Shown here in pieces: positions 4,096 to 43,154 of a stretch of DNA of 64,000 nucleotides (its first letter is position 1; each line of letters starts with the position of its first letter). Source of the stretch: Desulfatiglandales bacterium (GTDB lineage Bacteria; Desulfobacterota; DSM-4660; Desulfatiglandales; Desulfatiglandaceae); NCBI GenBank assembly GCA_963662465.1, contig OY759599.1, positions 128,001 to 192,000 of the forward strand, given 5' to 3'. The notes beneath the pieces are model-generated. The model was not told the DNA's origin, did no database searches, and saw nothing but the letters and a program-made list of their open reading frames with translations. A program made the position numbers and the translations under genes.

Positions 4096-4558
4096 CGGTT
4101 TTTATAAAAATGGATGTATTCATCCCGGGATATGTAAATTCTGAACACATACCGGAATCAAGGACAAAAACTGAAAGATTAAAAATGTAGCGTGGCGGTC
4201 ACTTCCGGCGTGACTAATCCGGGAGAACGGACCATTTAATTTCTATCCTGGATTAGGCACGCGAAGTGGGCATATTTATGCCACCTATCTTTATTTATCT
4301 TTCACAGGCTATCTGCCAAAGGGAGGGTTTGGGAGGGAAATAAGGTTCCCCTCTCAAATTAGAAGAAGAATTTGCCATAGGCGACCCCGTGGGGGGAAAG
4401 GTTTAAATAGGCGTTTGCGGTGAGCAAAGCGGAGCGTACTCCTTTTAAGCCTTTAGCCGTGAAGTGGCACAAATAGTCCACCTTTCGTTGAGGCGGAATC
4501 TATTGGATATCGTCAAGATAAAACCACTGCTTATTTTTGATTTAAATCATCCTAAGGT

Positions 4559-6238
4559 CAATACCCGTGAATGAATGATGTTCATGCTGCCTTTTTGTAC
4601 AGGACTTCCACATCTTGATTGAAATGGACGGTTTGCGATTTATCCTTGCTACGCTTTCGTTTGAAATTAGACATTTTTACTTTTATGACCCGTGGATTAC
4701 GTCTGGGTCTGCGTGGTCTATCAATTTTTGATTCTGCGATCATTTTAAGCAGAAAAGACCGCTTTTCTTTTCTCTTTCCCGTTATCATACTCATGAGTGG
4801 GGCACTTTGTATGATAAGATCGACAGTATCTACGAAACTGATCAACAAAGGATCACCGCCTTCCATGTTTGTTGCTTCTTGGATCAAAGAGCGAATCAGA
4901 TTGTATACGATCATTATTGAATACAATTCCTGTTCAACCAAATCACTGCGTTTACTACGAATTATGGTCGGCATTTGCCCTTTAAGAGTAGCGCACTGAT
5001 GAGTTTTAATTTCATCAAAAGCAATTTCTATATCCCAGCGCTTATGATAATGGGTGACAATCTCTTTTGCGCTGATATCTGAATCCAAGAGGCTTGTAAT
5101 TAAACGTACAGGTCGAAAACCTGGAATTTGGAAATGAATTACACGAACGATTATTTCAACCTTTTTCCATTTTTTCCGGCCGGTTTTCGGGTCTTCCGAT
5201 TCAACGATTTTCCCGTCAATTTTGCTCAGATAACTGCCGTCAAGCATTTGGGAACCAGGAATTGGTTTTAATTTTCCCGATTTTGCTATTTTCATAATGT
5301 GTTGAATCCCATTCTCGAACATATAATTGGCCAAATCAAATGAGTAAAATCCAGCATCAAAAAGCAATAATGCGCTTTCTATTGAACATCTTTTCAGGAT
5401 TTGAAACATCAAGGTTCTTTCGCCGGTCTTTTTTCCTTTGTAGGGAGCATAAGCAATATCTATAATTCGACGGGCAGTCAGACCCATTAATGCAACCAAT
5501 CTCATTTGCGGGAATGCGCCGTAGCCTCTTCCCGAGTTGTGTTTTCCAAACTTTTGCCAATTGCTTTCAGTGTCCGGCATTGTCAAGGAGGTACCATCAA
5601 ACATAGCGGTTCTCATTCCATGAAAATCAGGAGGTTCAATGTCTTTGAAAGTCGAAGCAAATCTGTAAAAAATGGTACGAAAGACGTCAATTCCCATTTT
5701 GGATCGAGCATGGCTAATCGTGCCTGCTTTTACAAATTTTCCATGGAAATCCAAATCCTTCCAGCGCATACCGGCGACCAGCCAGTTCAAAGTTTTGTCG
5801 TAATTCAAGTTTCGACGCAAAGCTAATGCAAAGCATAGCCAAACCAAAACAACCGGCGTCAGAATCGTGCCTTTCCTGTATTTGTCTTTCTGATGTTCTT
5901 TGAGAGCATCCTCAATGATCGGTTGAATAATTTTTTCAAAAGGAGCAAACTCAAAATCACTTTCAATTTTGGAAAAAATTTCTGAAACCCTTTTGATCAT
6001 GACTCTATCCTCGTCTAAGTTTTCTGATTAGTTGGTCTTTACATGAACCCATCAGAGTTTAAACGAGTATGAAGCGAATGTCCCGCTCCGTATTGCGGCA
6101 TTATTCGCTAAAATCAGCCGTATGGCCTTATTAGATCGTTTTTTCTCGCTTTTATATAGAATTTCTTTTTATTTTGACGATTATCTTTACTGAGGATTGG
6201 CCTCAGAAAAAGTGAAGCCAATTCATTCACGGGTATTG
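4559..6238 (-). mobile_element. complete IS4-family insertion sequence
   Basis: Perfect terminal IR CAATACCCGTGAATGAAT (4559-4576 / 6221-6238); 10-bp target duplication ATCCTAAGGT (4549-4558, 6239-6248). Confidence 0.95.
4582..6000 (-). CDS. IS4-family DDE transposase
   Basis: FDGT, FPQMRLV, LFDAGFYS and YHKRWDIEIAFDEIK (YREK-type) motifs. Confidence 0.92.
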   Translation of the reverse strand: MIKRVSEIFSKIESDFEFAPFEKIIQPIIEDALKEHQKDKYRKGTILTPVVLVWLCFALALRRNLNYDKTLNWLVAGMRWKDLDFHGKFVKAGTISHARSKMGIDVFRTIFYRFASTFKDIEPPDFHGMRTAMFDGTSLTMPDTESNWQKFGKHNSGRGYGAFPQMRLVALMGLTARRIIDIAYAPYKGKKTGERTLMFQILKRCSIESALLLFDAGFYSFDLANYMFENGIQHIMKIAKSGKLKPIPGSQMLDGSYLSKIDGKIVESEDPKTGRKKWKKVEIIVRVIHFQIPGFRPVRLITSLLDSDISAKEIVTHYHKRWDIEIAFDEIKTHQCATLKGQMPTIIRSKRSDLVEQELYSIMIVYNLIRSLIQEATNMEGGDPLLISFVDTVDLIIQSAPLMSMITGKRKEKRSFLLKMIAESKIDRPRRPRRNPRVIKVKMSNFKRKRSKDKSQTVHFNQDVEVLYKKAA

Positions 6239-6489
6239 ATCCTAAGGTTAACCGGCCACCGAAAACAATCGACACATTTGATTCTTTTTGCCATAATTGT
6301 CGAGTTGGAGCTGACTCTGCATTTCACGTTGACTTTCATTTCTGTTCACAGGGCCATTACAATTGTATTCAGAAATTTGGTTCAAATCTTATGAATACCA
6401 TCTGTATTGTGAAAGGCGTTAGAGTTTCGGTATAATGCGAGTATCTTTAACCTCGCTTAGTTCGAATCCAAAGCCTCCACCTCACAAGC

Positions 6490-6535
6490 TTGACAAAATA
6501 TACTGGCGTGATATTCTCTATTCGCGAATTGCGAA
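6490..6535 (+). promoter_or_regulatory. sigma70-like promoter with palindromic operator
   Basis: TTGACA (6490-6495)-N16-TATTCT (6512-6517); palindrome TTCGC-GAATT-GCGAA (6521-6535); AAAGGAG RBS follows. Confidence 0.55.
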
Positions 6536-6547: not shown

Positions 6548-6655
6548 ATGGTCCTCAAGCCTCAAGATATCTTGGTTTTATTAAAGCTAATCTCTGTCGG
6601 GAAAAGAAACTGGTCTTACAACATCTTGTTAGGCGTGTGCCAGGCTGCGTCATGA
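6548..6655 (+). pseudogene. 5' stub of a winged-helix protein gene, truncated at the cassette insertion point
   Basis: MVLKPQDILVLLKLISVGKRNWSYNIL resembles the N-terminus of a wHTH hypothetical family; it reads into GTTAGGC (6628-6634) and stops 8 codons later. Confidence 0.6.
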
Positions 6656-6676
6656 TAGACTGATCCAAAGGCAACT

Positions 6677-7660
6677 ATGAGACTTGAAGCAGATATAGGT
6701 GGCCGTTACGAAGTGCTCTGCAATGAGACGGGCTACTTCGGCGGAAATGTCATACGTATTGGGGAGCCGAAGGTATGCCGTTTTTGCGGCGAGACAGACA
6801 CCACACTTTTCAAGAAGAAAGCACATACGTTTCCGGAGTCAATCGGAAACAAGTGGGTCTTCTCTCTCGACGAGTGCGATCGGTGCAACTTGCTGTTCGG
6901 AGACTACGAGGATGCTTTGGCAACATGCGTTAGGCCCTTCCTCACCCTCGGCGGAGTCAGAGGAAAGAAAGGAGTCCCTCAGCTCGGCCGGTCTAAGGGC
7001 CAGTCCTCAATCAAGCACATTTTTGAACAAGGAAAGCGAGGTCTTTCCCTGGCGGCGCAAGTTGAAGATCTCGACTCCGTGTTTCGCCCTGGTAGATCCG
7101 CTGGTGTCATTGAGGCTGATTTTATAGTCCCCCCGGCACGCTTCAGGCCTCGCCTAGCATACAAGGCGCTGGTGAAGATGGGTATCGCGCTTCTGCCTCG
7201 AGAGGAGCTGGGGAACTACTCGAAGCTAAGGACATGGCTGCAAACGAAGAACGATGAAGTCGACTTTCCCTCACTGGACGTACTGATGTCGTTCGTTTCA
7301 GTCGGAAACTCGCCAGACATGGTGTCCGGCACCCTCCTGCGACGGCTCGATCCGATAGACGTGGTGCCACACATTCTCTTTTTCCTCACCGCCGGATCTG
7401 TCTGCTTTCAGATCGACTTGCTTGCTGATGAATTGGACTCTCATATCCCTCACGTGGATCCTTGCCACGTAAAGATCCGTTGGACTTCAGTGCTTTTAGG
7501 CGAAAGTGATGACCCTCCCATCAAGCTGCGGTATTCAGATCCAACTTGCCTTGATTGGTCTGCCGCTGACCTTGCGGATCCTCCCGTTGAGAAGTTGAAG
7601 TTCGAATTCAACGTAGCGACGACCCACGCTCAGTGGACTCCCATCATGCGAGAGTCTTAG
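6677..7660 (+). CDS. HNH endonuclease with uncharacterised C-terminal domain (cassette 1)
   Basis: CRFC...AHTFPESIGNK...ECDRCNLLFG Zn-binding HNH signature. Confidence 0.85.
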   Translation: MRLEADIGGRYEVLCNETGYFGGNVIRIGEPKVCRFCGETDTTLFKKKAHTFPESIGNKWVFSLDECDRCNLLFGDYEDALATCVRPFLTLGGVRGKKGVPQLGRSKGQSSIKHIFEQGKRGLSLAAQVEDLDSVFRPGRSAGVIEADFIVPPARFRPRLAYKALVKMGIALLPREELGNYSKLRTWLQTKNDEVDFPSLDVLMSFVSVGNSPDMVSGTLLRRLDPIDVVPHILFFLTAGSVCFQIDLLADELDSHIPHVDPCHVKIRWTSVLLGESDDPPIKLRYSDPTCLDWSAADLADPPVEKLKFEFNVATTHAQWTPIMRES

Positions 7661-7679
7661 TTGAGCCGCGTGTCCATTC

Positions 7680-7748
7680 GCCTAACATCGGGCTGGACGA
7701 GGATGCGCTGGAAAACCGCCCGCCCACCTGTCAGCCCGGCCGTTCGGC
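7680..7748 (+). repeat. attC site 1
   Basis: GCCTAAC-N5-GCTGGACG...TGTCAGC-N6-GTTCGGC; L boxes pair with one extrahelical G. Confidence 0.88.
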
Positions 7749-7775
7749 TGCAGCACAAAGGAGGTTCAATGCACT

Positions 7776-8954
7776 ATGGACCCAGTAACAAAGGACATTC
7801 TATCCCAGCTCGACAATCTCTTGGCAGCCAGTAATCAATCGTGGCTGTTCGGTGCAGGAATCAGCCTTGATGCAGGGATTCCTCTGATGTGGCCGCTTAC
7901 TGAGCGAGTATTCACGAGGGCAAAAGACGATGGAGAACCGAGTGACATCAAAGTTCTCGAGTTTGTAAAGAGCCAGCTTTCTGACGATTCGCATATTGAG
8001 CACATCTTGAGTCAGCTCGGCGATCACCGCGCGATTGCCGACCGCTCAAAGGACAAGAATGTCGCGTTCGACGCCATTTCTCTCTCGGTGGATGACCTTG
8101 ATGGTCTTCACCAAAGGATTCTGACATGGATTGCTGAGACAATTCGATGGGGATACAAACCTGCTCAACCTGTGGGGATTCCTGAGGAAATTGGGACGTA
8201 TGAGAACCGTATTGTCGTTATCGACAACCATTCAGCATTCGTTTATGCCCTCTTCAATCGAAGCCAAGCAGGAATCGCAGAACGACGGAGAGCAGTCCGG
8301 CTATTTACCACCAACTACGATACCCTCCTTGAAGATGCTCTTGCACTTGGAGGCTTCTCGTGCTGGGATGGGTTCTCTGGCGGCGCGGTCGCGTATCGTA
8401 GCCATCGTTACGGCGACGAAGAGCCAAATCTCAGAGATCGTGCGCATGTAATCAAGCTTCACGGGTCGATCGACTGGCACTTAGGAGAAGATGACCGAGT
8501 CTGGCGAGTCCGCGACGGGGATCTCTATCCTAAGAAAGTTTCTCGGGTTCTAATCTACCCACAAGCCACAAAATACCTTGCGACTCAAAGGGATCCATTT
8601 GCGGCCCAATTTGATCTATTCCGGCGTTCACTTGGGGCACGGGAGGAGAATGTTCTCGCAACATGTGGATACAGCTTTGGGGACGAGCATATCAACCAGG
8701 AGATTGAACTGACGCTACAACGCCCGGAGAACAAAGCAACGGTTCTCGCCTTTGCTCAGAAGCTCAATCCGACTCTCGAAAGGTGGAGGACCGGTCCGTG
8801 GGGTAAACGTGTCTATGTCATTTCAGCGGATGGCTTGTATGTAGGTGCAGACGGACCTCAAGCGCCTCCGACTGCTGGAGCAAAACGAGATTGGTGGACG
8901 TTTTCTGGCGTGACCAAAATGCTAAACTGTGGAGCGGAGGCGTGTGCGCTATGA
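7776..8954 (+). CDS. SIR2-family NADase effector of a Sir2-HerA defence system
   Basis: WLFGAGIS, FTTNYDTLLE, KLHGSIDW, CGYSFGDEHIN; GGAGG RBS; ATGA-coupled to HerA. Confidence 0.92.
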   Translation: MDPVTKDILSQLDNLLAASNQSWLFGAGISLDAGIPLMWPLTERVFTRAKDDGEPSDIKVLEFVKSQLSDDSHIEHILSQLGDHRAIADRSKDKNVAFDAISLSVDDLDGLHQRILTWIAETIRWGYKPAQPVGIPEEIGTYENRIVVIDNHSAFVYALFNRSQAGIAERRRAVRLFTTNYDTLLEDALALGGFSCWDGFSGGAVAYRSHRYGDEEPNLRDRAHVIKLHGSIDWHLGEDDRVWRVRDGDLYPKKVSRVLIYPQATKYLATQRDPFAAQFDLFRRSLGAREENVLATCGYSFGDEHINQEIELTLQRPENKATVLAFAQKLNPTLERWRTGPWGKRVYVISADGLYVGADGPQAPPTAGAKRDWWTFSGVTKMLNCGAEACAL

Positions 8955-10837
8955 ATACGTTTGAGCTTATTTCGGACCTGAAGATTGGGCACATCGTTGA
9001 GGTGTCCGGAACTACCATTCGGGTAGAGTTATCAGGAGATGTCACGGAGCTCACCCGAACCTATGAGGGGAGAGTTTATCCCATCGGACAGATCGGTAGC
9101 ATCGTAAAAGTCCATTTTGGAAGACGCTTGGTCTTCGGTTTCGTGACGCTGCTAAGAATGAGGTCTGAGGAGCTTCTTGAGATTACAGAGCCCATTCCAC
9201 CCGATGCCGATCAGCGGCTCATGGAAGTCGAATTGTTTGCGGAAGGTATCTGGAACGCAGCAGACCAAAAACTCCGGTTCGTTCGAGGTGTGACGACCTA
9301 TCCGCTTCCCCGTCAAAGCGTGCATCTGCTCACTCGCGAGGAGACTACCCATATATACTCAGCGGCTGAGGGGCAGCAGAATGACGGCGAATATAGCCCG
9401 CTCGTTCCATTCGCTCATTACGTTGGAGCAGACAATGCCTTATGTCGGGCAAACGTAGATAAAATGCTGGGCATGCATTGCGCGGTTCTAGGTTCAACGG
9501 GTTCAGGAAAGTCTGGTGCGGTTGCTGCTTTGCTTCATAGCATGCTGGATCACACCCCTGAACCGGCCGCAGTCTGTCACCCGAGAATCCTCATCATTGA
9601 TCCTCATGGGGAATACGGCCACGCGTTCAAGGAACGTGCGATCGTTTATCGTGCTTACGACCCACTTGGAAACGAAGAGACGACCGGCTCTCCGATAAGC
9701 CTCCCCTATTGGCTCATGTCGGCGGACGAGATCAGGACCTTAGTGATTGGAAAAACTGAACAGGAAGCTACATCACAGAACAACATCATCTACAAGGCCA
9801 TCACCTATGCCCGAATGGTTGCCGCTGACCTTGTTGAGCCTTCCCCGACCGCACATGGCGGAGCGGCCCCTACCGATGGCTTAGACCATGATGCACCACG
9901 GCCAAAGGCAGGAGTTACGTTCGAACAGCTGATTGAGTTCGATCACGACAAGCCGCGACCGTTCAGCCTCCAGGAGTTTTACAACCACATTTTCTATTTG
10001 CAGGCAGCGCGCGTGCAGGGAGGCGCGCTTCAGAGCGTTACGGCTTCTGAATTCGCCTCAAAATTCAAATCCATCTTGGACAAGCTCTCAGTCTTGAGGC
10101 GTGATCCACGGATCCGTTTCATGATGCGGGAATGGAATGATCAGAGCCCTTCACTTGAGCATATTATCGCCCAGTTGGTCGGACAGATCCAAGGTGAGGG
10201 AGGCGTAGATCAAGACATTCGTATTTTGGATATTTCTGGTCTTCCAAATGAAGTGGCCGGTCCACTTGCTGCCATGTTGGCTCGTCTGTTGTTTCAGTAT
10301 AAGGTTTACCAGACAACGGAGGAAAGACGACGCGATCCAGTCGTCTTCGTGTGTGAAGAAGCTCACCGATATGTCCCCGACAGAGGCGAGGCCGAGTATG
10401 CAGCGGCTCAAACCGCAATCCGAAGGATAGCTCGTGAAGGGCGGAAATACGGTATTGGCCTCATGCTCGTGAGTCAGCGCCCCGCCGATATAGAGAGCAC
10501 TGTGATTTCGCAATGTGGCACATGGCTCGTCCTGCGGCTTACAAACGCAGCGGATCAACAGCACGTTTCTCGTTTCTTGCCAGATGGATTGTCAGGCATG
10601 ACGAAAGCACTGCCTAATCTCGCTCAGCAGGAGGCAATCTTCGTTGGCGAAGGCGCTGCGATGCCCGCTCGAGTTCGAATTCGAGATCTCGAAGATGACC
10701 AATTGCCGAAATCGGAGACGGCAAAATTCGCAAAGGGTTGGACCCTTGATCGGCTTACCGAAGCGGAGATTGCAGCAGTCGCTAACCGAATGGCCGGAGA
10801 AGTAATGCACACCCCAGGAGGACAAGAAAGCGTCTAA
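8951..10837 (+). CDS. herA: HerA ATPase/translocase of the Sir2-HerA system
   Basis: N-terminal HAS-barrel-like region, Walker A GSTGSGKS, Walker B VCEEAHRY, REGRKYG, SQRP; ATG at 8951 overlaps the SIR2 stop. Confidence 0.92.
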   Translation: MNTFELISDLKIGHIVEVSGTTIRVELSGDVTELTRTYEGRVYPIGQIGSIVKVHFGRRLVFGFVTLLRMRSEELLEITEPIPPDADQRLMEVELFAEGIWNAADQKLRFVRGVTTYPLPRQSVHLLTREETTHIYSAAEGQQNDGEYSPLVPFAHYVGADNALCRANVDKMLGMHCAVLGSTGSGKSGAVAALLHSMLDHTPEPAAVCHPRILIIDPHGEYGHAFKERAIVYRAYDPLGNEETTGSPISLPYWLMSADEIRTLVIGKTEQEATSQNNIIYKAITYARMVAADLVEPSPTAHGGAAPTDGLDHDAPRPKAGVTFEQLIEFDHDKPRPFSLQEFYNHIFYLQAARVQGGALQSVTASEFASKFKSILDKLSVLRRDPRIRFMMREWNDQSPSLEHIIAQLVGQIQGEGGVDQDIRILDISGLPNEVAGPLAAMLARLLFQYKVYQTTEERRRDPVVFVCEEAHRYVPDRGEAEYAAAQTAIRRIAREGRKYGIGLMLVSQRPADIESTVISQCGTWLVLRLTNAADQQHVSRFLPDGLSGMTKALPNLAQQEAIFVGEGAAMPARVRIRDLEDDQLPKSETAKFAKGWTLDRLTEAEIAAVANRMAGEVMHTPGGQESV

Positions 10838-10884
10838 ACCATTTGATCTGAGTGCCCTTCGAGTTGGGTGGGAATCAGAGATGG

Positions 10885-10940
10885 GCCGAACGAATAAGGA
10901 CAGAGTGTGCGAAGCCACAATCTTATCCGTTTGGTTGGAC
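10885..10940 (+). repeat. attC site 2 (degenerate arms)
   Basis: GCCGAAC...GTTGGAC with imperfect internal dyad (ATAAGGA/TCTTAT, GTG/CAC). Confidence 0.6.
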
Positions 10941-11285
10941 AAGTCCAAAATCGGCACATAACTTGCAATTATCAAATATCTTTTTGAGGGCGATTATTGT
11001 AAAAACAACCTGGTATATGAAGCGGTTAGATGGGATTTGTAGGACTGTACGAATTTATCCATTGCGCTTAATTCTATACTGTTTTTGGATAAATTGCAAA
11101 TTCTTCTTAATGATTTTCATTATGCACTCTGGCTCATGTGCAGATACTGTGTGAGTGGCATTTTGCCATCCCGCTTTCAGCGAGAAGCCTGGAAAGCACC
11201 AAGGGAACGGTGGACGAGGGCGTTCCCAAAAGGACGTTTTTTCAAACTGAGAATTGTTGTTTTTCTTCTGCCGCGTAGCGGCTTC

Positions 11286-11345
11286 GTCCAACAATTTGCT
11301 GCACGGGAGCGCAAAAAGCCGCGCCCTGTGAGCAACACGTTCAAC
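11286..11345 (+). repeat. attC site 3
   Basis: GTCCAAC-N5-GCTGCACG...TGTGAGC-N5-GTTCAAC, extrahelical G, central GC hairpin. Confidence 0.85.
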
Positions 11346-11890
11346 AATTATTATCCTATTCATAAACCGGTATCGTGTCCGATAAATTGTTGATACAGAA
11401 TCTAAGCATGAGTGGTGTTAATTCCTTTTTATCTCCGATCTAGCGAATACTGATGTATGAGCTCATTTATCAAAATGATGGCACGGGGCTCTTTTAGTTC
11501 CTCATGTGCCCACAAACCCATTTCTATCGCAAAGCATGTGACAACGGTTTCTTTGACATCGAATTTTGTGATATCTGAACAGGGCTATATCAATTCCCCG
11601 TGGAAGGAAAAGCGGAAAGTTTAAATGAAAAACATTGGCTTCACGGATCCAGATTGGAGTTGTTTGCTGAGGGATTATTAGGAATCTTGACTGTGAAGTT
11701 ATTCGAAAAATCCTTTCCTGGAAGCTGATATATTCTGTGGCGAGCAGGAAACCTGAGCGCAGCGCACGGACTTTCGGGAGATTGTCCAACAGAACCCTGT
11801 GCCGTTCTTCAAAAACACAAGGATATTGACTCCGGTTGAAAGGTTCTCTTACGTAATTCCTGCAAAAAAATGGGGATCACTGTTCCACAG

Positions 11891-16016: not shown

Positions 16017-17273
16017 ATGAAGGAAATGTCCGATGGAAATTTTTTGAAGCCGGATAGTACTGAATCACTAATCGAATCTCTCCATGCCACTCAGAGGAAG
16101 AGAACCTTGGTCATCAACCCTGATTATCTTGATGACGAAAAACTGCCGGAAGATGAAAGGGCAGCCGTTCTAAAAGAAATCTTTAATCGTAACATCCGTG
16201 AAAAACAACTGAGTAGAATCATTTCCCATCTCGCACCGGTCCTGGATGGTATTCACCCGAATTCTGCCTTGATCTTCGGACCAACCGGCGCCGGAAAAAC
16301 AGTTACTTTGATGCACGTACTTTCCACCTTTGAATGGGTCGCTGAAACCAAGGGAGTCATGTTCCGCTATTCGTATATTGATTTGACCTCCCCAAAAACC
16401 TACTTTGGCGCCTTAAATGAGGTCGCTATTTCTCTTGATAGCGCATGCAAAAAATACCGTAAAGGTATTCCAATTGAGTACATGCAGGCGCAAATAGTGG
16501 AGTCGCTCGGAAATTATGACGGTTACCTCAGTCTACTCATCGATGAGGCTGACAACATCCGGCCTAACTCCGACGGCTTTCTCACATTTCTTGCAAAAAC
16601 ACTTCCCCGGAAAGTCTCTTGCAGATTGATTCTTGTTCTCCTGACCAATCGGCTTGACTGGGAGAAAACCCTTGACCCCAGGATTCTGAGTTTTTTCAAA
16701 AAAACCGATATGATCTTTGAACCCTATGACGCCCTTGATCTCCTTGAAATCCTGAAACTCAGGGTTGAGAAAGCCCTTGATATGACCAAGGTCGATATGG
16801 CTGCGCTCAAAAAGGTGGCTGCTTATGCCTCACGGGAAACCGGAGACGCAAGAAAGGCCGTTGAACTTCTGGCCAAAGCTGTCAAGGTAGCCGAAGAAAG
16901 CACGGGACGGCTCTCGGAAAAAGAAGTCGATATTGCGGCAGACCGACTTGAGATAGACAAGACAGAAGAACTTGTCAAGGCACTTGCGACCCAGCAGCGT
17001 GTAGCCCTGAAGTCCTGTTATGGCGCCTTATCAAATGGCAGCAAAAAGACATATACAGGCCAGGTTTACCGGGTCTATGGGGACGTATGCGGTCGGGAAG
17101 GCCTGCGGCCTCTAACCCAGAGACGTTTCTCTGAGATAATGAGCTTTCTCGATCTTTACGGTCTGATCAATGCCAGAGTCATCTCAAAAGGTCGATACGG
17201 AAACACGCGGGAGATATCAAGTTCTTTGCCGGATGAGGTTGTGGAGCGTTTTCTTTTTTCCAGTATCTATTGA
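16017..17273 (+). CDS. cdc6: Orc1/Cdc6-family replication initiator (AAA+ plus winged helix)
   Basis: Walker A GPTGAGKT, Walker B LLIDEAD, F-x-PY-x-x-x-DL-x-EILKLR, GDARKAVELL, C-terminal LTQRRFSEIMSFLDLYGLINARVISKGRYGNTREI. Confidence 0.9.
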   Translation: MKEMSDGNFLKPDSTESLIESLHATQRKRTLVINPDYLDDEKLPEDERAAVLKEIFNRNIREKQLSRIISHLAPVLDGIHPNSALIFGPTGAGKTVTLMHVLSTFEWVAETKGVMFRYSYIDLTSPKTYFGALNEVAISLDSACKKYRKGIPIEYMQAQIVESLGNYDGYLSLLIDEADNIRPNSDGFLTFLAKTLPRKVSCRLILVLLTNRLDWEKTLDPRILSFFKKTDMIFEPYDALDLLEILKLRVEKALDMTKVDMAALKKVAAYASRETGDARKAVELLAKAVKVAEESTGRLSEKEVDIAADRLEIDKTEELVKALATQQRVALKSCYGALSNGSKKTYTGQVYRVYGDVCGREGLRPLTQRRFSEIMSFLDLYGLINARVISKGRYGNTREISSSLPDEVVERFLFSSIY

Positions 17274-20533: not shown

Positions 20534-21466
20534 TTATGCTTTGAGAGGCAGCACGGGGGTTCGGCAAGCGGAAGTACCTAAGATCGATTCTGAAGGGGCC
20601 TCTTGTTTTCCGGCGCGGACCCAGATTTCGGCCGATAAGCCATGGGAGAACATCTGTTCAAGACTTGTCAGCCATATAAAATCCGAGGGCGGCATTTCCT
20701 GAACCAGCCTTGACAACACCGCCAGCCGACCGTTTGTATTGGTGAGGAAGAGGAGACGGAACCCCTTCAGATTGCAGTCCCAGTATTTCTCGTACCGTTT
20801 ATACCGGTCGCTTCGAAAATATTCCTGATAGTTTATGACTTTCTGGCGTACGTCCCGGGGGTCGCGTTTTAGACTGGCAACGGACTCTGTCCCCATGTCC
20901 ACCTCAAGAAAGAAAAGGAGCGTGATCTGCCTTTTTCTGTTCGTTATGGAGAAAACTCCGTCCGGGGTAAATCCACTTGCATTTTGATCCTTTTCGCCAG
21001 CGGGTGGCGGTTCAAATATGAGAGGGATGTCACTTTTTTCCCGTTTTAAGAAAGGCGAATCGGGGGAGAGGAACCGGATGGAGAATTCAGGCATCGCGTA
21101 CTCCATTTCGCCCAAATGGATACGGAACCAGTTGGTTAAGAGTTGATGCTCCATGCAGCGGATTTTTTCAGCGTTTATCTTATTAATCGGCACGTCCCGG
21201 AGGACTGGATATTTAGGACCGAGCAGATCGGCGCCTTCTTGGGTGAGAGAGACCATTTTTTCAGGTCTGCCGCGACTCTGACCGAACCCGCGGGTAGCTG
21301 TGATAATGACCCCCGCCTGTTCCAGTTTTTGCAGACGCCTTCGGACTACCTGCCTGCTCTTACGTTGGATGGCAGTGACCTGGCTTGCTGTTAGCACTCG
21401 ATGCTCGGCAATTGCAGTAAGGACCTGGTGGTCGTTTTTGTTAAACTTGAATGTCATTGGATTCAT
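20534..21466 (-). CDS. replication-relaxation (Replic_Relax) family protein
   Basis: N-terminal wHTH (HRVLTASQV...VRRRLQKLEQAGVI), EHQL, TPDGVF, FFLEVDMGTES, K-x-x-x-Y. Confidence 0.85.
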   Translation of the reverse strand: MNPMTFKFNKNDHQVLTAIAEHRVLTASQVTAIQRKSRQVVRRRLQKLEQAGVIITATRGFGQSRGRPEKMVSLTQEGADLLGPKYPVLRDVPINKINAEKIRCMEHQLLTNWFRIHLGEMEYAMPEFSIRFLSPDSPFLKREKSDIPLIFEPPPAGEKDQNASGFTPDGVFSITNRKRQITLLFFLEVDMGTESVASLKRDPRDVRQKVINYQEYFRSDRYKRYEKYWDCNLKGFRLLFLTNTNGRLAVLSRLVQEMPPSDFIWLTSLEQMFSHGLSAEIWVRAGKQEAPSESILGTSACRTPVLPLKA

Positions 21467-22715: not shown

Positions 22716-23426
22716 CTAAAATCTCACAATGCACTTTTGGACCCAAGGATCTGCAATGGCTTTCAGCTTGAGGAGTTCGTCCTTGTCATGACCAGCGCCT
22801 GTTTTGGCGAAAAACAGGGGATTCAGTACTCCATTATTATGGAATCGCTGTAAGGCATAAAGCTCAGCGCCCTTTATGGTTCGCACAACATTTTTCATGC
22901 TTTGTTCATCCACGATCGGTTTTATGCAGGTTGTCCTGAACTCATAGGGTATGCCTGATCCCATGATGTTTTCAATGCTTGCGAGCGTTTGGTCTGGATC
23001 ATATTCTTTCGCGATGGTGGATGGATAGCGGAGAGGATCGGTCTTAACATCCATGGCGATATAGTCAACGAGCCCCTCATCGATCATACGTTTGATGACT
23101 TCCGGCCGGCTGCCGTTTGTGTCCAGTTTGATCAGATAGCCGATCTCCTTTATTTTCGTGCATAACAAAACAAGCTCCTTCCGGAGCGTTGGTTCTCCGC
23201 CGGAAATAACCACACCGTCAATGAAGCCTTTGCGGTTTTCAAGAAACTCGCAGAACGCTTTTTCGTCAAGTCCATTTGAATATCCTGAACCGCCTTTTAC
23301 GAGCTGTGGATTGTGGCAATAAGGACAGGTGAAATTGCAGCCCGAAACAAAGAGCACACAGCTTAATTTCCCGGGATAGTCAATCAGTGAATTCTTTTGT
23401 ATTCCACCGATAATCATTGAATGCAC
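22716..23426 (-). CDS. nrdG: anaerobic ribonucleoside-triphosphate reductase activating radical SAM enzyme
   Basis: SLIDYPG, GCNFTCPYCHNP, ISGGEPT, KLDTNG, YEFRTT; directly downstream of nrdD. Confidence 0.93.
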   Translation of the reverse strand: MHSMIIGGIQKNSLIDYPGKLSCVLFVSGCNFTCPYCHNPQLVKGGSGYSNGLDEKAFCEFLENRKGFIDGVVISGGEPTLRKELVLLCTKIKEIGYLIKLDTNGSRPEVIKRMIDEGLVDYIAMDVKTDPLRYPSTIAKEYDPDQTLASIENIMGSGIPYEFRTTCIKPIVDEQSMKNVVRTIKGAELYALQRFHNNGVLNPLFFAKTGAGHDKDELLKLKAIADPWVQKCIVRF

Positions 23427-23461
23427 TCCTCATCGATCCGGTTTTGTTCCGCAAGAAAACT

Positions 23462-25186
23462 TCAGGCCGCCTCAAACACTTTTCTCATATCGTATTCTGC
23501 TTGTTTTCCGTCGTTCCACTGCTTGACAGGTCTCAAGTAGCCAACGACCCGCGAATAAACTTCCGTTTCTTTCCCGCAATCAGGGCAGCGTTTTTGCTCT
23601 CCGTTCAGGTACCCGTGGGACGGACAGATGCTGAAGGTTGGAGTCAGTGTGAAATAGGGAAGCCTGAAATGATTAACAACCTTCTTGAGCAACGCCCTTA
23701 TTGATCTAACGTCACTGACTTGTTCCCCCAAATAAATATGAAGGACTGTTCCCCCCGTATATGTTGCCTGCAATTGGTCCTGTAACTCCAAGGCTTCGAA
23801 AATATCGTCCGTGTAATTTACGGGTAGCTGGGTAGAGTTTGTATAAAAAGGTGCAGCTCCTTTTCGGTATTCCGCTTCATTTGCACAGATGATTTCAGGG
23901 AACCTTTTCTTGTCAAGCATCGCAAGTCGATACGATGTGCCTTCTGCAGGCGTTGCTTCTAAGTTGAACATTTCGCCTGTCTCATCTTGTATTTGGGAAA
24001 TGATTGTGCGGATATGGTCCATGGTTTTGAGGGCAAATACCTGTCCTTTTTCACTTCCGATGTCCCTCCCAAACAAGTTCAGGCACGCCTCGTTCATGCC
24101 GATGATTCCGATGGTTGAAAAATGGTTTTTCCAGTAAAGCCCAGTGCCCTCTTTGATCTGTCTTAAGTAGAATTTTGAATAGGGATAGAGGTTTTTATCT
24201 GTGAAATTCTCAAGGACTTTCCTTTTTATTGTGAGGCTCTCTTTTGCAAGGTGAACAAGCTTTCCCAAATGCTTCATGAAATCATCCTCGCTATCCGCCT
24301 GATATCCTATGCGGGGGAGGTTAATGGTCACGACTCCGATTGAACCCGTCAGGGGGTTCGCGCCGAAAAGACCGCCGCCTCTTTTCAGGAGTATCCTGTT
24401 GTCAATGCGAAGGCGGCAACACATGGATCTTGTGTCTTCAGGCGACATGTCGGACCTGACAAAGTTTGAAAAATACGGAATCCCGTATTTCCCTGTCATG
24501 GCCAGGATCGCTTCAAGCACTGGGTTGTCCCAATCAAAATCTTTTGTGATATTGTAGGTAGGTATGGGAAAGGTGAAGACACGCCCTTTGGCATCGCCCT
24601 CCATCATGACCTCGGCAAATGCCCTATTGATCATGTCCATTTCTATTTGAAAATCGGAATATGTCTCTTTTTGTTCGATGCCTCCTATGATGACACGTTG
24701 GTTTCTCAGAGTTCGAGGGGGGGACAGGTCTAAAGTAATGTTGGTAAATGGGGTTTGGAAGCCGACTCTGGTCGGGACGTTTATGTTGAAAATAAATTCT
24801 TGCAGCGCCTGTTTCACTTGTCGGTAATCAAGGCCGTCATACCGAATAAAAGGGGCAAGAAGGGTGTCAAAATTTGACATAGCCTGAGCGCCGGCAGCTT
24901 CACCTTGTAATGTATAGAAAAAATTAATAATTTGTCCTAAAGCAGGCCTGAAATGTTTAGGTGGTGCACTCTCGACTTTCCCCAGGACACCCTTGAAGCC
25001 TTGCATGAGCAAGTCTCTCAGTTCCCAACCAACACAATAAACAGAAAGGAGGCTGAGGTCGTGTATGTGGAAATTTCCTCTTCTGTGTGCGCGCCGAATT
25101 TCCGGGGGGTATATGTGGCTTAACCAGTATTCAGAGGTGATATCCGATGAAATATAGTTATTGAGCCCCTGAAGGGAATAGCGCAT
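23462..25186 (-). CDS. nrdD: class III ribonucleoside-triphosphate reductase, 5'-truncated by an IS
   Basis: YSLQGLNNY, HIHDL, YCVGW, SMCCRL, EATPAEG, CPSHG...CPDCG, glycyl-radical YSRVVGYL. Native sequence ends at the IS end (25181); the in-frame ATG (25184-25186) lies inside the IS IR. Confidence 0.9.
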   Translation of the reverse strand: MRYSLQGLNNYISSDITSEYWLSHIYPPEIRRAHRRGNFHIHDLSLLSVYCVGWELRDLLMQGFKGVLGKVESAPPKHFRPALGQIINFFYTLQGEAAGAQAMSNFDTLLAPFIRYDGLDYRQVKQALQEFIFNINVPTRVGFQTPFTNITLDLSPPRTLRNQRVIIGGIEQKETYSDFQIEMDMINRAFAEVMMEGDAKGRVFTFPIPTYNITKDFDWDNPVLEAILAMTGKYGIPYFSNFVRSDMSPEDTRSMCCRLRIDNRILLKRGGGLFGANPLTGSIGVVTINLPRIGYQADSEDDFMKHLGKLVHLAKESLTIKRKVLENFTDKNLYPYSKFYLRQIKEGTGLYWKNHFSTIGIIGMNEACLNLFGRDIGSEKGQVFALKTMDHIRTIISQIQDETGEMFNLEATPAEGTSYRLAMLDKKRFPEIICANEAEYRKGAAPFYTNSTQLPVNYTDDIFEALELQDQLQATYTGGTVLHIYLGEQVSDVRSIRALLKKVVNHFRLPYFTLTPTFSICPSHGYLNGEQKRCPDCGKETEVYSRVVGYLRPVKQWNDGKQAEYDMRKVFEAA

Positions 25187-27188
25187 AAGTCTAAATGTTG
25201 TGGGGTTGTATAACCCATCAAAATTAAAAGGCGTTTTCGGTAAACAAGAATGCATTATGAACATTCATAACTTGAATCCAAGGTAAGTCAAATGTTTGGC
25301 CGTTGGCTAATTCAAAGGGACTTTTATGAGCATTTTTTGCGCCAGGTAAAAATGGGACAAAATTCCTGATAGTCGCATGTGCTCGAAAGAAAAGACTTGC
25401 CCATTTCTTATCTCGAAAACTCTCAATTTGTTTTAGTTTACGTTTGATTCCTTTTAAATAATTGTCAACAATGGAGGTTGTTTGTTTTATCCCATTTCTA
25501 TTTTTATGAGAGGTATAATGAGTGGCATTTTCTTTTAATTCTACTACCCTCTTTTTTAGTAATGGATGAGAAAATGCATCGTCATCTAATGCCTTAATCT
25601 TTACTTCCAAGTTAACTTTAGATGTGGATGTTTTCAAAACTTTCTTAAATTTTTTATAAAGCTTGTCCACTTCTTGGTCGGTACATTTTGATTCTTTTTG
25701 ATATTTTGATAGTGCATCGTAGAAGTTTTTCAAACAATGACGATGGCAATATCCGACCCAAATGTTATGGAATACGGTCTTGATAGCATTGGTTGAGGCT
25801 TTCCACTTATCTTTTGTTACACCAAGGATTTTGAAGTCGATTTTTTGCAAAAAATCCTCAAATGAACCGCACAGGTTTTCTTCATCAACATGATCAACAT
25901 AATCGGAGTGCCATACTAATAAATTTTCAGGATCGACCATAACTACAGAATAAGTTCTTAAATTTGGTTCTTTTTCAAAGCCCTCATCTTCCTGTAGATA
26001 TCCTGAGCCTTTCACTCCTGCTCTTGTTAGTATTGTTGCAGGATGAAGTGTTCCTGCCCATCGATTCCAGTTCAAGATGGTCTGTTTGCTTTTGACACTT
26101 TTTTTGCCAATAATTTTAAGGCTTTCGATGGCTCCTTGAATGCTCGCATTAAAACGGTACATATTCCGAAATACGTGCCCAATAATCTCTATACCAAAAT
26201 TCTTTTCCCTTGGGAGAAAGCTGGGAACAAGAGAGAACTTTTGTTTGCACTTCCGGCATTGTATCATGCGGATTGGGAATGTCTGTTGTTCTCCTCCATT
26301 CATTATTGTTTTTCGAGGATTCCCGCGGAAACCAGATAAAATATATTCTTTAGGTCCAGAACATGTTGAATTATGGCCTGTGTGGTGATCATATTTATCG
26401 AGTTTATCTAATACTTCAATGCGAAACTTCTTACTGTCTTTTACGAGAGCATGATAGCTTTCGGTGTTATTATAAGGAAAGATATATGTTTGATTTCCTC
26501 GTTTAGAAACAAGGTCTTCCATTTTCTTTTTTACATTTTCGATTATGGATTTATCAAAAGATTTTAACATCCCTATCTCAAATGCAATACTGATTGTACT
26601 ATCACGACTTTTTACATTATTCAATTTTTTAGTAATATTACTTATCATTGAACGAATTGAATAAAAGATTCTAATTTTCTGTCGATCCCGTTGTGTTTTT
26701 GGAATGCTTTTTTTCCCTTTTATTGGCTTACAAATATCCCATAATTGACTTATTAACCTACCAAGTTCATCAATAAGAGCAGACAATGTTACATAAAAAT
26801 ATTGCAATGATTGAAACATCTCCCTTTCATTGATCCATGATCTGATGGCATTAATGCATTTCTCAATTTCAAAGAAAATCTCAGGATACTGTTTTGGATC
26901 GTAATAACATTGTCTTGCAAGTCTGTTTTGAGCTTTGTCCAACATTGTCAAAGCTCTCTTAATATTATTAATCATGTGCAACCTCTCTAATTTAACATAG
27001 ACTGTTGCACTATGATTATGCACACTTATCAAAAAAAGTCCCTAACTTTTTTCCGCTAAGGCGAATTCAGGAAAAAATGTTTGGCCTCACGAAATGCGCT
27101 TTGATTAGGATATTGATTCTGAACCGTTTAACAGATGAAATAATTTCAATATGTTAGAGTAAACCCCACAACATTTAGACTTATGCGC
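25181..27188 (-). mobile_element. IS of unclear family with 27-bp perfect IRs and no target duplication
   Basis: GCGCATAAGTCTAAATGTTGTGGGGTT at 25181-25207 and its reverse complement at 27162-27188; AT-rich interior. Confidence 0.9.
25224..27032 (-). CDS. large RNase H-fold transposase (IS256/MULE-like motifs)
   Basis: Zn motif (H...C, CRKC...SLVPSFL), LQEDEGF, VTKDKW, YCHRH (CxxH), TTSIVDN-x-x-x-x-x-KRKLK; enclosed by the IRs; start probably MINNIK. Confidence 0.8.
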   Translation of the reverse strand: MISVHNHSATVYVKLERLHMINNIKRALTMLDKAQNRLARQCYYDPKQYPEIFFEIEKCINAIRSWINEREMFQSLQYFYVTLSALIDELGRLISQLWDICKPIKGKKSIPKTQRDRQKIRIFYSIRSMISNITKKLNNVKSRDSTISIAFEIGMLKSFDKSIIENVKKKMEDLVSKRGNQTYIFPYNNTESYHALVKDSKKFRIEVLDKLDKYDHHTGHNSTCSGPKEYILSGFRGNPRKTIMNGGEQQTFPIRMIQCRKCKQKFSLVPSFLPREKNFGIEIIGHVFRNMYRFNASIQGAIESLKIIGKKSVKSKQTILNWNRWAGTLHPATILTRAGVKGSGYLQEDEGFEKEPNLRTYSVVMVDPENLLVWHSDYVDHVDEENLCGSFEDFLQKIDFKILGVTKDKWKASTNAIKTVFHNIWVGYCHRHCLKNFYDALSKYQKESKCTDQEVDKLYKKFKKVLKTSTSKVNLEVKIKALDDDAFSHPLLKKRVVELKENATHYTSHKNRNGIKQTTSIVDNYLKGIKRKLKQIESFRDKKWASLFFRAHATIRNFVPFLPGAKNAHKSPFELANGQTFDLPWIQVMNVHNAFLFTENAF

Positions 27189-28267
27189 GAAAAACCTTGG
27201 CTGTCGGTGTTTACCCCGAAGTGACATTGGCCGAAGCCAGACAGCAGCGTGATGATGCGAGGAAGCTGTTGCAGAAAGGTGTGGACCCGTCCCAGCATAA
27301 AAAAGAAACAAAATTAATTCAGCGGGAATTAGCGGTCAATAATTTTGAGGCCGTAGCGCGGGAATGGTTCGATAAAAATACTCACGTTTGGACGAAAAAG
27401 CATGCGACAACCGTTATCCGGCGTTTGGAGTTAAATGTTTTCCCCATCATCGGCAACCGTCCAATTAAGCTGGTTACTGCTCCTGAACTCCTGGAAGTCC
27501 TTCAGAAGATAGAAAGCCGTGGAGCCATTGAGACAGCCCACAGGGTCAAGCAAATATGTGGTCAGGTGTTCCGGTATGCAATTGCAACCGGACGGGGGGA
27601 GCGTGATCCGAGCGCAGACCTCAAAGGGGCTTTGACCCCTGTGAAGCCAAAAAGTATGGCAGCGATTACCGATCCTAAAAAGATTGGGAGTCTGCTCAGG
27701 GCTATTGACGGTTATGACGGGCAAATTATGACAATGTGCGCCCTGCGACTTGCACCTCTGACGTTTGTGCGCCCTGGTGAACTCCGGCATGCTGAATGGT
27801 TGGAAATTGACCTGGATAATGCCGAATGGAAGATACCAGCTCACAAGATGAAAATGAAGCTCCCCCATATCGTACCACTATCCAGGCAAGCCGTTGATAT
27901 CCTGGTTGAGCTCAAACCTATTACGGGTGATGGACGGTATGTCTTTCCTTCCCTGCGAAGTACCGTCAGGCCTATGAGCAATAATACCGTCAATGCGGCT
28001 TTGAGGCGTATGGGGTATGCGAAGGACGAAATGACCGGCCATGGTTTCAGGGCCATGGCGTCAACGATCCTTCATGAACAGGGGTGGCCATCCGATGTGA
28101 TCGAGCGTCAACTTGCCCATACTGAGGGGAACAGCGTGAAGGCCGCTTACAACCATGCTCAGCACCTTCCTGAACGGCGGAAGATGATGCAGTCATGGGC
28201 TGATTGCCTGCATGCGTTAAAGGGCGGTGCTCAGGTGACCTCCTTCCGGCGGGTGAATGGAAGTTAA
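27189..28267 (+). pseudogene. P4-type tyrosine integrase, 5'-truncated in the arm-binding domain
   Basis: Begins abruptly at KTLAVGVYPEVTLAEAR right after the IS IR; catalytic VRPGELR, HGFRAMAST, LAH, AAYN intact. Confidence 0.9.
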
Positions 28268-28526
28268 GTGGGATATCTTATGTGGGGGTAAACGGTAAAA
28301 AATAACATTTCCGATCCTATGCGCAAAAAGCGCAATATTTGCGTAAGGTTTTAATGGTGCCCATGGATATGGTTGCTCCCGAAAAGCGGGGCGCCCTATC
28401 TAATTTCAACATCGCCGTGACGTACAGTTAAATTTTCAGTTTCCGGGGATAGGTTCTGCAGACCGATAAGGCGTGATTACCTGTCTCGCTTTCCCCGGAT
28501 TAACAACAAGGCCGTGAGGGGCGGCT

Positions 28527-29372
28527 ATGACTATGCTACTCTTGGATTTTTGCAATATCAAAGAATGGACATCCGAAGCAGCCTTAAAACTCTACAAAAC
28601 ACACCGAATCATTCATTCCGAATGGGGAGAACGTGACGGGTTTGAGAAGTTTTGTGCATCTAAATACCAGCCTAAAAACCCTTTAGCTTTTGCACTGGTA
28701 GAAGTGAACGAGATCGAACCCTGGCTATCTGAAGACAGTGAAAATTCTTCCCCATCTGAATGGATGGGCATGCCTATCCTGTTTCCTTCTAATCCGGGGT
28801 ATTCTCAAATATGGCGGAGTTTGCAATTCAGTAAAGAACAATTTTATATCCCATTTCTGAACAAATGTTCGGAGGGCATTCTTGATTTGAATTTTGTGAA
28901 TGACCTACTGGAGGATTTCCAGGCTACACAAGACATTCGATTCTTGGTAACGGAAACCAAAGAAACTTTTTTTAGACCTCAATTCTCAATGAACAATAAA
29001 TATTTAAAAACGATTGAAGACCACATTGATTGGGAAATCTTATCCATTGTATTGAATCGACCAGAATTTTCAAAAAAACTGACACAATTGTTAAGAAGGT
29101 GCGTGAAGTGCAACAAGTATTTTCTTGCATCCAGAAACAACAAGGATTTTAAGAACTGTCCTACATGTTCCCGCAAAACATCCATGTCACCTGAAGCCCA
29201 GCGCGAATATCAAAGAAACAGGCGAAAAAAGTTGAAAGCGCAAAAAGAAGCAGCGAAGGTGGATGTCGAAACAAGAAAACGTGAGAAGAAAATTGATTTT
29301 TTCATGAAACAACTCGTAATACCCAGGGATGAGGCTATTAATCTAATTGAAGAAGAGGCTCAAATTGAATAG
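28527..29372 (+). CDS. hypothetical protein with zinc finger
   Basis: RRCVKCNKYF...CPTC followed by a basic helix. Confidence 0.7.
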   Translation: MTMLLLDFCNIKEWTSEAALKLYKTHRIIHSEWGERDGFEKFCASKYQPKNPLAFALVEVNEIEPWLSEDSENSSPSEWMGMPILFPSNPGYSQIWRSLQFSKEQFYIPFLNKCSEGILDLNFVNDLLEDFQATQDIRFLVTETKETFFRPQFSMNNKYLKTIEDHIDWEILSIVLNRPEFSKKLTQLLRRCVKCNKYFLASRNNKDFKNCPTCSRKTSMSPEAQREYQRNRRKKLKAQKEAAKVDVETRKREKKIDFFMKQLVIPRDEAINLIEEEAQIE

Positions 29373-29589
29373 CGTAACTGAGGAAGAGATAAAAAGACAC
29401 AGGTTTGCTAGGGTTACGCTTAGACGAATAACTGAATAAGGAGTATTTATATGTAAATACCTAAGTTACTTGTCATTTTTGACATAGCATTTTTTTGTAG
29501 GCATAAGAAGTCCGACATCTTAAATGATGTTTTGGGCTTTTTTTTTGGCCGATAGCTTCAAACAAAAGAATTTGAGAGGGGGTGAAGAA

Positions 29590-29796
29590 ATGAAAAACAA
29601 ACCGAACCTAGAACTAAAAACTATCCTTTTTAAAAGAGGCATTACACAGCGTCAATTGTCTTTTGGAACTGGCATTGACGAAGGTCTGATTTCAAAGACA
29701 ATTCGCTATGGCATGACCACTGCGCAGATCAGGGAACGGATCGCTGATTTTCTGAATGTGAATCAATCAGAGCTTTTTAACTATCGGAATTACTAA
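29590..29796 (+). CDS. Cro/XRE-like HTH protein
   Basis: GITQRQLSFGTGIDEGLISKTI...IADFLNV-x-x-x-ELF; GAGGGGG RBS. Confidence 0.8.
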   Translation: MKNKPNLELKTILFKRGITQRQLSFGTGIDEGLISKTIRYGMTTAQIRERIADFLNVNQSELFNYRNY

Positions 29797-29820
29797 TTCA
29801 ACTAAAGGGGGTGTTCTCAA

Positions 29821-30057
29821 GTGAATATTATGCGGAGCAGTTCCATCCTTCGGAGAAAACAGGTGGAAACCCGGACGGGCTTATCTCGTTCGACTATCTA
29901 CCTGCGGATCAAAAAAGGCACTTTTCCCAAACCGATTAAGCTCTCAGAACGTGCGGTCGGCTGGCTTGAATCAGAGATTGCTGACTGGTTGGACGAAAAA
30001 ATCCAGATCCGCGATGCCGGAGCTGAAATTCAGGGAGGTGAACTCCATGCCAGATGA
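29821..30057 (+). CDS. alpA: AlpA-family regulator/excisionase
   Basis: ILRRKQVETRTGLSRSTIY...GTFPKPIKLSERAVGWLESEI. Confidence 0.93.
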   Translation: MNIMRSSSILRRKQVETRTGLSRSTIYLRIKKGTFPKPIKLSERAVGWLESEIADWLDEKIQIRDAGAEIQGGELHAR

Positions 30058-30370
30058 AACGGCGGCAATCCTGGAATTCATACGTTCGGTGGGTATCTAT
30101 TCGTTTGTTCTTGGAAAAGTCAAGGATGAAGCGGAAGCGGTGCGGATGTTCAAGGATGAATTTCAAGATTTGGTCAAGCTCTGTTCAGGTTCGGAGTGTG
30201 GGAAAAAAAATGGAAGCAATCAAATCAAATCTCAGAAGCCGTTTCATCAATCTTTTGGTGACCAAAGCTCTCTCATGGGTAGAAGAAATTTTAATTTGGC
30301 TTCCCTATTTCACGCGGATAAGCATGTGGATCGACGGGATTCATGTTTTCAGAGAGGGGTGCGGATCTAA
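30047..30370 (+). CDS. hypothetical protein
   Basis: GGAGGTG RBS, ATG at 30047 overlapping the alpA end. Confidence 0.45.
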   Translation: MPDETAAILEFIRSVGIYSFVLGKVKDEAEAVRMFKDEFQDLVKLCSGSECGKKNGSNQIKSQKPFHQSFGDQSSLMGRRNFNLASLFHADKHVDRRDSCFQRGVRI

Positions 30371-30393
30371 GGCCCATCGAAGAGGAAATCGCA

Positions 30394-32451: not shown

Positions 32452-32810
32452 TGTTGGCAATCAAAATATTGGAAGATTGCAAGGCTCAAGGCATTACCCT
32501 TCAGGTGCTTGAAGAAGGTCAGTTAAAGATCAGGGCACCAAAAGGGAAAGCCGACGAAATCCTTTTGAGGTCTATCAAAGACCAGAAAAAGAACCTTATC
32601 AGGATTTTGAAGGGCAGGGCTTTTTTTGAGCATCATTTGGACACGGCACTTGCTGAACTCAACCATCTTGGTATCTCCCCCATGGATTATCCAGCGAGTA
32701 CAAGACAGAGGGCTTATTCGTTGGAAGGTAAAATTGATGCAGCTGCGAATATGGGTGAAAGGAATCTGTTCTTGGTTTTACTGAAACAATGGCGGGAGTG
32801 CTTCAACTGA
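32451..32810 (+). CDS. hypothetical satellite protein
   Basis: Coupled to the primase stop; GITLQVLEEGQLKIRAPKG motif. Confidence 0.65.
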   Translation: MLAIKILEDCKAQGITLQVLEEGQLKIRAPKGKADEILLRSIKDQKKNLIRILKGRAFFEHHLDTALAELNHLGISPMDYPASTRQRAYSLEGKIDAAANMGERNLFLVLLKQWRECFN

Positions 32811-33470: not shown

Positions 33471-33486
33471 CCTCTCTATTCGCTTT

Positions 33487-43140: not shown

Positions 43141-43154
43141 TCCGCGTCATCCTT

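Follow-up and report, generated by a model that had tools for sequence, protein, structure and literature searches.

A two-cassette integrase-less array carrying Sir2-HerA in a Desulfatiglandales genome, with junctions resembling recombination at genomic attG-type sites

We analyzed a 64,000-nucleotide stretch of the genome of a Desulfatiglandales bacterium (assembly GCA_963662465.1, contig OY759599.1, positions 128,001 to 192,000; hereafter the window, in whose coordinates the local features are given) containing attC sites that form a cluster without an integron integrase (CALIN). The array comprises two cassettes, one with an HNH gene (1.1 kb) and one with the two-gene Sir2-HerA system (3,196 bp), and has no attI. 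A third unit (10889-11289), counted as a cassette in an initial annotation made from the letters of the sequence, is a non-autonomous mobile-element derivative inserted in inverted orientation at the R'' of the Sir2-HerA cassette, whose own attC is attC3. We consider it likely (probability of roughly 0.6), judging from the sequence and its homologs, that this CALIN arose through the action, in trans, of an integron integrase on attG-type sites of the genome. These would lie in an operon of the PDC-M21 type, about 1.16 kb of which appears to have been replaced, because one intact allele (locus L138; L and G numbers denote homologous loci and related genomes) matches both flanks of the array. 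The features are as follows.

6490..6517, + strand: predicted sigma-70-like promoter (TTGACA, 16-nt spacer, TG-extended TATTCT; 10 of 12)
6519..6535: inverted repeat, putative autoregulatory operator, kept in close and distant M21A homologs
6548..6628, + strand: codons 1-27 of PDC-M21A, a putative antitoxin/regulator, truncated at the left junction G|TT
6629..7742, + strand: cassette 1 (1,114 bp), core GTTAGGC pairing with R'' GCCTAAC
6677..7660, + strand: HNH_5-domain protein, 327 aa (PF14279, E 1.3e-6)
7680..7748, + strand: attC1 (69 bp), scoring 27.8 bits on the bottom strand, with a fold z of -2.7 over 7679-7748
7776..8954, + strand: Sir2 (SIR2_2), 392 aa (PADLOC SIR2, E 6.7e-149); its cassette 2 begins at 7743
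8951..10837, + strand: HerA ATPase, 628 aa (PADLOC HerA, E 4.5e-141; PDB 8wiv, E 2.6e-67)
10885..10891, + strand: original R'' (GCCGAAC) of the Sir2-HerA cassette, the insertion point of the mini-element
10885..10940, - strand: attC-like hairpin end of the mini-element (attC2), 12.1 bits, E 1.9, opposite strand
10889..11289, - strand: mini-element, a 401-bp derivative, without an open reading frame (ORF), of a tyrosine-recombinase and IS91 (Y2)-transposase element; both ends bound full elements in relatives
11286..11345, + strand: attC3, 36.2 bits, body of the Sir2-HerA cassette's own attC, with four R'' letters now element-derived
11340..11418, + strand: right flank, 82% identical to L138:3514-3591, a non-coding stretch just behind PDC-M21B

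Three core motifs, GTTAGGC at 6628, GTTCGGC at 7742 and GTTGGAC at 10934, have exact reverse complements at 7680, 10885 and 11286 (GCCTAAC, GCCGAAC and GTCCAAC), the chance agreement of the four variable core letters being about 1 in 256 per pair. These pairs lie where the initial annotation had placed them; its reading of three forward cassettes gives way to two cassettes and an inverted mini-element. We scored attC sites with a covariance model of our own (not that of IntegronFinder) built from 30 attC sites of related genomes, a training set that excluded known homologs of attC1 and attC3 and that yields only rough E-values. The only two hits with E < 1 in the 64 kb are attC1 and attC3, which lie 3.6 kb apart and so supply the at least two clustered attC sites of a CALIN, whereas attC2 scores weakly and on the opposite strand. 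Folding of the bottom strand, which had been proposed as a further check, likewise supports both sites, each giving a single R/L-box hairpin. The canonical extrahelical base of the attC bottom strand is G. In attC1 and attC3 the extra G of L'', previously taken for this base, sits on the top strand when read from the folds, so that the bottom-strand extrahelical base is C.

The window contains none of the 68 TIGR02249 matches of the genome and no intI remnant, and with two significant attC sites the description of an orphan array stands. Five TIGR02249 matches elsewhere in the genome exceed the cut-off; four are full length, making an integrase available in trans as had been anticipated. The nearest intI above the cut-off is 3.15 Mb away along the contig, or about 1.5 Mb if it is circular. 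The host genome has at least 85 attC-like sites, and such genome counts are only lower bounds because a first heuristic scan found almost no attC near intI genes and 150 of 1,510 candidates were scored in one scan. An attI at the left junction was considered and rejected: the upstream 630 bp have no BLAST similarity to intI loci and are M21 DNA. The regions upstream of intI also differ by eye from this junction.

The Sir2-HerA unit is a genuine integron cassette. Its DNA homology extends over 7742-10891 with locus L092 and over 7731-10895 with L049, that is, homologs break at the same GTT and R'', bearing out the proposal that both genes are packed as one cassette of about 3.2 kb. In L049 the core and R'' covary (GTTCTGC/GCAGAAC) and an upstream intI above the cut-off makes the locus a complete integron. 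Among 51 Sir2 homolog loci, 47 with at least 150 nt downstream of HerA, an attC directly follows HerA in five, all with a core match of 6-7 of 7 upstream of Sir2 and with units of 3,163-3,239 bp. The remaining 46 loci gave no attC hit, and 13 of the Sir2 loci follow the end of an hsdS-like gene (a motif picked by eye), so Sir2-HerA is a cassette in some lineages only. No circle junction occurs among the listed joints in sample contigs, which drop rare forms.

As in the described Sir2-HerA/Nezha system (PMC13434337; PDB 8w9l, 8wiv), the SIR2_2 and HerA genes are adjacent, with overlapping stop and start and intact motifs: TTNYD and KLHGS of Sir2 align with 8w9l, Walker A and EEAH of HerA with 8wiv, and the two proteins match chains of solved structures common to the same PDB entries. 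The present predicted pair differs in falling far below the NCBIfam equivalog cut-offs (57 versus 500 for Sir2; 259 versus 850 for HerA). The cargo can be called anti-phage for Sir2-HerA by homology, but not for the HNH gene, which has no PADLOC match. A search with the HNH protein returned 96 matches including itself, mostly unnamed and without genomic context, and none of 400 other genomes matched cassette 1, leaving no second copy with context for checking its boundaries.

At 3.2 kb the Sir2-HerA cassette is large for a defense cassette but not for this host, and the earlier description "unusually large" applies to the first comparison only. Like the integron anti-phage cassettes of Darracq et al. 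(10.1101/2024.07.02.601686) and Kieffer et al. (10.1101/2024.07.02.601719), it is a promoterless one- or two-gene defense unit; theirs are described as small and streamlined and "Sir2" is absent from both main texts, whereas here a full-length 3.2-kb system is carried. Cassette recovery has been reported to drop with size (10.64898/2026.03.17.712381). We found no report of Sir2-HerA as a cassette in the accessible literature, although the supplementary tables of Darracq et al. may list it. The locus shows a defense operon of full size circulating in cassette form, contrary to the published tendency toward small systems. Three arrays of the host genome gave 29 intervals that could be scored (two further ones were unscorable), of which 15 follow the core rule, at 0.9-5.8 kb; many intervals contain, and are enlarged by, group II introns or insertion sequences (IS), judged from translations, but a 4.8-kb multi-gene unit has a core match of 7/7.

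The left junction cuts PDC-M21A at codon 27/28, behind its promoter and operator. The remaining fragment is identical at 78-79 of 81 nt to intact 177-aa alleles (L137, L138 and L141), and the promoter and operator are 94-96% identical to those of intact alleles. Full-length M21A relatives correspond to PADLOC PDC-M21A (called on homolog L045) and are followed by PDC-M21B. Of 16 loci in a pattern scan for M21, nine are close M21A alleles (L137 and L141 apparently being one sequence, and two being frameshifted), and close-allele identity stops at 6627-6629, which is the cassette crossover. A sample contig bridges this junction. The promoter scan returned nine sites versus 4.5 +/- 2.0 in shuffles, a weak test alone; the predicted promoter is conserved upstream of intact M21A alleles. 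On the far side of the array, L138 again matches, so that it agrees with both flanks, and none of 1000 shuffles was as good. Relative to L138 the operon lacks about 1.16 kb. We rejected a simple insertion into M21A as an explanation: the gene does not resume when the flanks are joined in silico, and nothing in the host genome matches M21B.

The junctions are explained most economically by two integrase events at genomic sites, working like attG insertion combined with off-site excision. Loot et al. (10.1101/2022.09.11.507474) demonstrated experimentally genomic insertion, expression from a resident promoter and deletions upon off-site excision; shared with their attG recombination are a cassette boundary at a genomic site, disruption of a gene, a neighboring deletion and a resident promoter ahead. 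The boundary here lies at the G|TT crossover within non-integron DNA, and the left junction is the sole AAC-N5-GT motif in the 1.25-kb operon (a post hoc observation). The differences are that the present case is natural rather than selected in E. coli, that its left target is GTC rather than GWT, and that the promoter, probably captured, comes from a toxin-antitoxin-like operon whose genes are gone.

Several observations weigh against recombination at attG-type sites. The left target in close alleles is G|TC in six of nine and A|TC in three, none being GTT, compared with a published consensus of GWT; the right site does read GTT, the allele that represents its empty state being 82% identical. 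With about 1.16 kb missing, the insert is not flanked by both halves of a target. The strong match to both flanks is confined to L138, that of L146 being weak (20 of 1000 shuffles) and those of L136 and L141 not significant against the window flank. Finally, the right flank is preceded by an attC of 31.4 bits in G006 and by attC-like sites in G186 and in G100, the stretches compared in these three genomes being free of M21 sequence, and may therefore travel with arrays.

These last matches also favor the strongest alternative, which we nevertheless regard as unlikely: that the locus is the remnant of a complete integron. The array and its 3' flank would have stood downstream of the M21 operon, a single deletion (by IntI at GTC, or illegitimate) would have removed the rest of M21, intI and attI, and the flank would represent the beginning of a non-coding terminal unit moving along with arrays. 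Just one off-consensus event would be required, a site scored as attC lies about 220 bp behind M21B in L141, and CALINs have been described as possible degraded integrons in the IntegronFinder 2.0 paper, in which 2,961 were counted (PMC9024848). However, homology is unbroken from M21B past its stop into the flank in L138, L146 and L136, which argues that the flank is native to the M21 operon; the lack of an intI remnant in the window also speaks against such an origin, and an illegitimate deletion ending at most 1 nt from a cassette crossover should be improbable. The locus shares with described CALINs and single attC sites without an integron integrase (SALINs) at least two attC sites, the lack of a nearby integrase and a chromosomal location, but intact alleles define both of its junctions, pointing to replacement of a host operon and not to simple loss of intI.

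Under recombination in trans at attG-type sites, the cassettes would have entered the M21 operon at one genomic site, and another attC x attG recombination would have removed the roughly 1.16 kb lying between the two sites, in either order. The putative toxin and antitoxin would have been deleted together; loss of the antitoxin alone should be costly, which would favor joint loss of the toxin. The PDC-M21 operon resembles the AbiE type IV toxin-antitoxin system (PMC7319586) in its two genes, its possibly AbiEii-like second gene and its promoter inverted repeat, for which the autoregulation of AbiE is the basis of the proposed operator role. M21B resembles AbiEii by language-model features, and the nearest Atlas clusters carry PF08843 on 14-23% of their members; M21A has no AbiEi family match, neither M21 protein has a Pfam or NCBIfam hit, M21 repression and toxicity are presumed, and just 27 codons are left here. 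In two other genomes small ORFs of one kind are joined to the M21 promoter (L158:1501-1548, G128) and to a cut M21B (L150:2493, G185), so that rearrangement of M21 operons is frequent.

The promoterless cassettes probably use the promoter of the interrupted operon. If M21A represses its own promoter as AbiEi does, they would now be constitutively transcribed, and Sir2-HerA is probably expressed since the cassettes would stand behind the M21 promoter in a genome from which its cognate repressor is gone. By homology, this may provide abortive-infection defense through depletion of nicotinamide adenine dinucleotide (NAD+) gated by the HerA ATPase, a mechanism taken from PMC13434337. We think it improbable that the array, although structured as described, has no protective expression and is silent or neutral, having been stored or being in decay in a patchy island. 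Sir2-HerA does sit behind a 1.1-kb cassette and an attC hairpin, and an IS4-family element ends 245 bp upstream of the M21 promoter, but all three ORFs are intact, the promoter and operator are conserved to the extent given above, and no terminator-like site (five found, at chance level) lies on the + strand before 8060.

The identity of the 401-bp mini-element follows from its conserved ends, a rebuilt attC and an insertion-free contig. Both ends bound 2.30-2.45-kb two-gene elements in relatives (six copies, genes on the opposite strand), and an IS91-type transposase is antisense in all nine cases found between such ends. The window copy retains both conserved ends and the inverted position at R'' of these attC-homing elements, whereas the recombinase and Y2 transposase genes are absent. 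Twelve aligned copies of attC2 differ in the four letters preceding AAC but agree on the right, through GTTGGAC, which shows that attC2 is minus-oriented and part of the right-hand unit; the third core pair is accordingly that of the inverted element itself. Its hairpin is kept with pairing in 97% of alignment cells (a figure from related sequences, not a probability) and two covarying pairs. Removal of the element in silico rebuilt a resident attC in three of six full copies and in the window, versus 4 of 300 random AAC sites; in the window attC3 joins 10885-10888 to give a 60-bp attC, and three of the six full-length copies have an exact upstream core. A sample contig (runs X1/X2), probably from a related strain lacking the insert, joins 10885 to 11290, skipping 10886-11289, at a depth of about 1/3 to 1/5.

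Some findings fit an inverted insertion less well. Three of the six full elements yield no resident attC (one at a contig end), and for the three rebuilt sites only the heuristic test counts because they were also training sites of model R1. The insertion-free contig has four other letters and a 34-nt side, and the host genome has no match to the recombinase of the element at E <= 1e-20. Nonetheless, the idea of three forward cassettes, the third ORF-less with attC3 as its own site, is largely refuted and very improbable: it would explain the three exact core pairs, and attC2 in its circle form is able to pair on the forward bottom strand (-9.5 kcal/mol), but the model gives attC2 a low score and places it on the opposite strand, the right and not the left side is what its copies preserve, the ends of unit 3 bound IS91-type elements with antisense transposase, and uninterrupted cassettes have an attC immediately after R''.

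As a unit with an attC end, the inverted mini-element would have come in by recombination at the R'' side of the resident attC. Because a usable attC3 is left, attC1 x attC3 excision would carry the mini-element along. The element-end motif occurs in 37 of 209 genomes. Of 24 element-end sites offering 700 bp or more of sequence, only 8 yielded a transposase in searches with two query proteins, and the window is one of those that did not. G004 has another short ORF-less version, of 486 bp, for which no resident attC was seen, and G131 has one of 373 bp. Insertion at attC is shared with IS1111-attC and group IIC-attC introns, and the position of an IS91-like element next to an attC with ISShvi3 (PMC9229058). 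Group IIC-attC introns are, like the mini-element, oriented opposite to the cassettes, and ISShvi3 is described only as adjacent to attC; the present copy is ORF-less and keeps only the ends. We found no report of ORF-less IS91 derivatives at attC in the accessible literature, the nearest being ISShvi3. A practical warning is that cassette counts are inflated by inverted elements with attC ends, which follow the core rule as well.

Matches of the array region in 60 relatives are short pieces only, nearly all at attC sites, element ends and flanks. The interior of the mini-element (11113-11259, 150 bp) matches two stretches of G016 (72-75%) that lack element ends. Rfam returned nothing in 10800-11700, its sole hit in the window being int-alpA. 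Head-to-head pairs of the element-end motif 30-55 bp apart occur in G104:C379, G019:C51, G055:C226 and G119:C1 and are possibly two inverted ends at one site.

Each ingredient of the locus has precedent. It is of a known kind, a CALIN with a known defense system. What it adds is an attG-like replacement occurring in nature, probably with capture of a promoter, and an inverted IS91-type insert of miniature size. Recombination at attG has been demonstrated in laboratory E. coli; a natural case in which an intact allele fixes both junctions makes the process directly testable, including the non-consensus target and promoter capture. We offer a more general scheme only tentatively, and doubt it more than we credit it: integrases acting in trans might swap defense systems in place, with the M21 3' flank as a recurrent landing site and a second recombination at the sole AAC-N5-GT motif deleting toxin and repressor to leave a constitutive attI-free platform, while the ORF-less attC-ended mini-elements (401, 486 and 373 bp) might form a class resembling miniature inverted-repeat transposable elements (MITEs) that hitch-hikes on cassettes.

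The array is flanked by RadC, DUF3150, DUF1257, AAA, DUF87, PD-(D/E)XK, Cdc6-like and Replic_Relax genes, which are consistent with a mobile island. Location inside another mobile element, as the initial annotation had it, is plausible from these neighbors. No empty allele of the island was found among the 60 relatives, which gave short pieces only, and a viral scan with a 386-aa neighbor protein returned nothing. G007 shares 12.3-19.6 kb of the window and then diverges; the shared part includes a Cdc6 block (G007:C560), and the Orc1/Cdc6-like gene at 16017-17273 (TIGR02928 above the cut-off) lies in the same bacterial island as a Replic_Relax gene at 20534-21466. The island also contains an NrdD ribonucleotide reductase with its radical-SAM activase (22716-25264). 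The IS4-family element upstream of the M21 promoter spans 4545-6246 and has about seven other full or partial copies in the genome. Farther along the window are a satellite-like element with a P4-like integrase, an int-alpA RNA and a Toprim protein (27197-34176) and a PLD-SNF2 helicase gene with an adjoining probable methyltransferase, interrupted by IS elements (40425-44713).

Elsewhere in the host genome, two long arrays (G000:C1:3293406-3353173 and 6734748-6789629) share a dominant 86-bp attC family at 4-8-kb spacing and include the 4.8-kb multi-gene cassette and one cassette with a 1,437-aa ORF. Eight tandem 1,609-bp IS91-transposase units (G000:C1:4412954-4424747) start G|TTGGAC at an intI-proximal site. 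A further CALIN (G000:C1:3201504-3221158) carries genes that match PADLOC PDC-S02, a SIR2/ThsA-like domain, a type IIG restriction-modification enzyme and PDC-S05.

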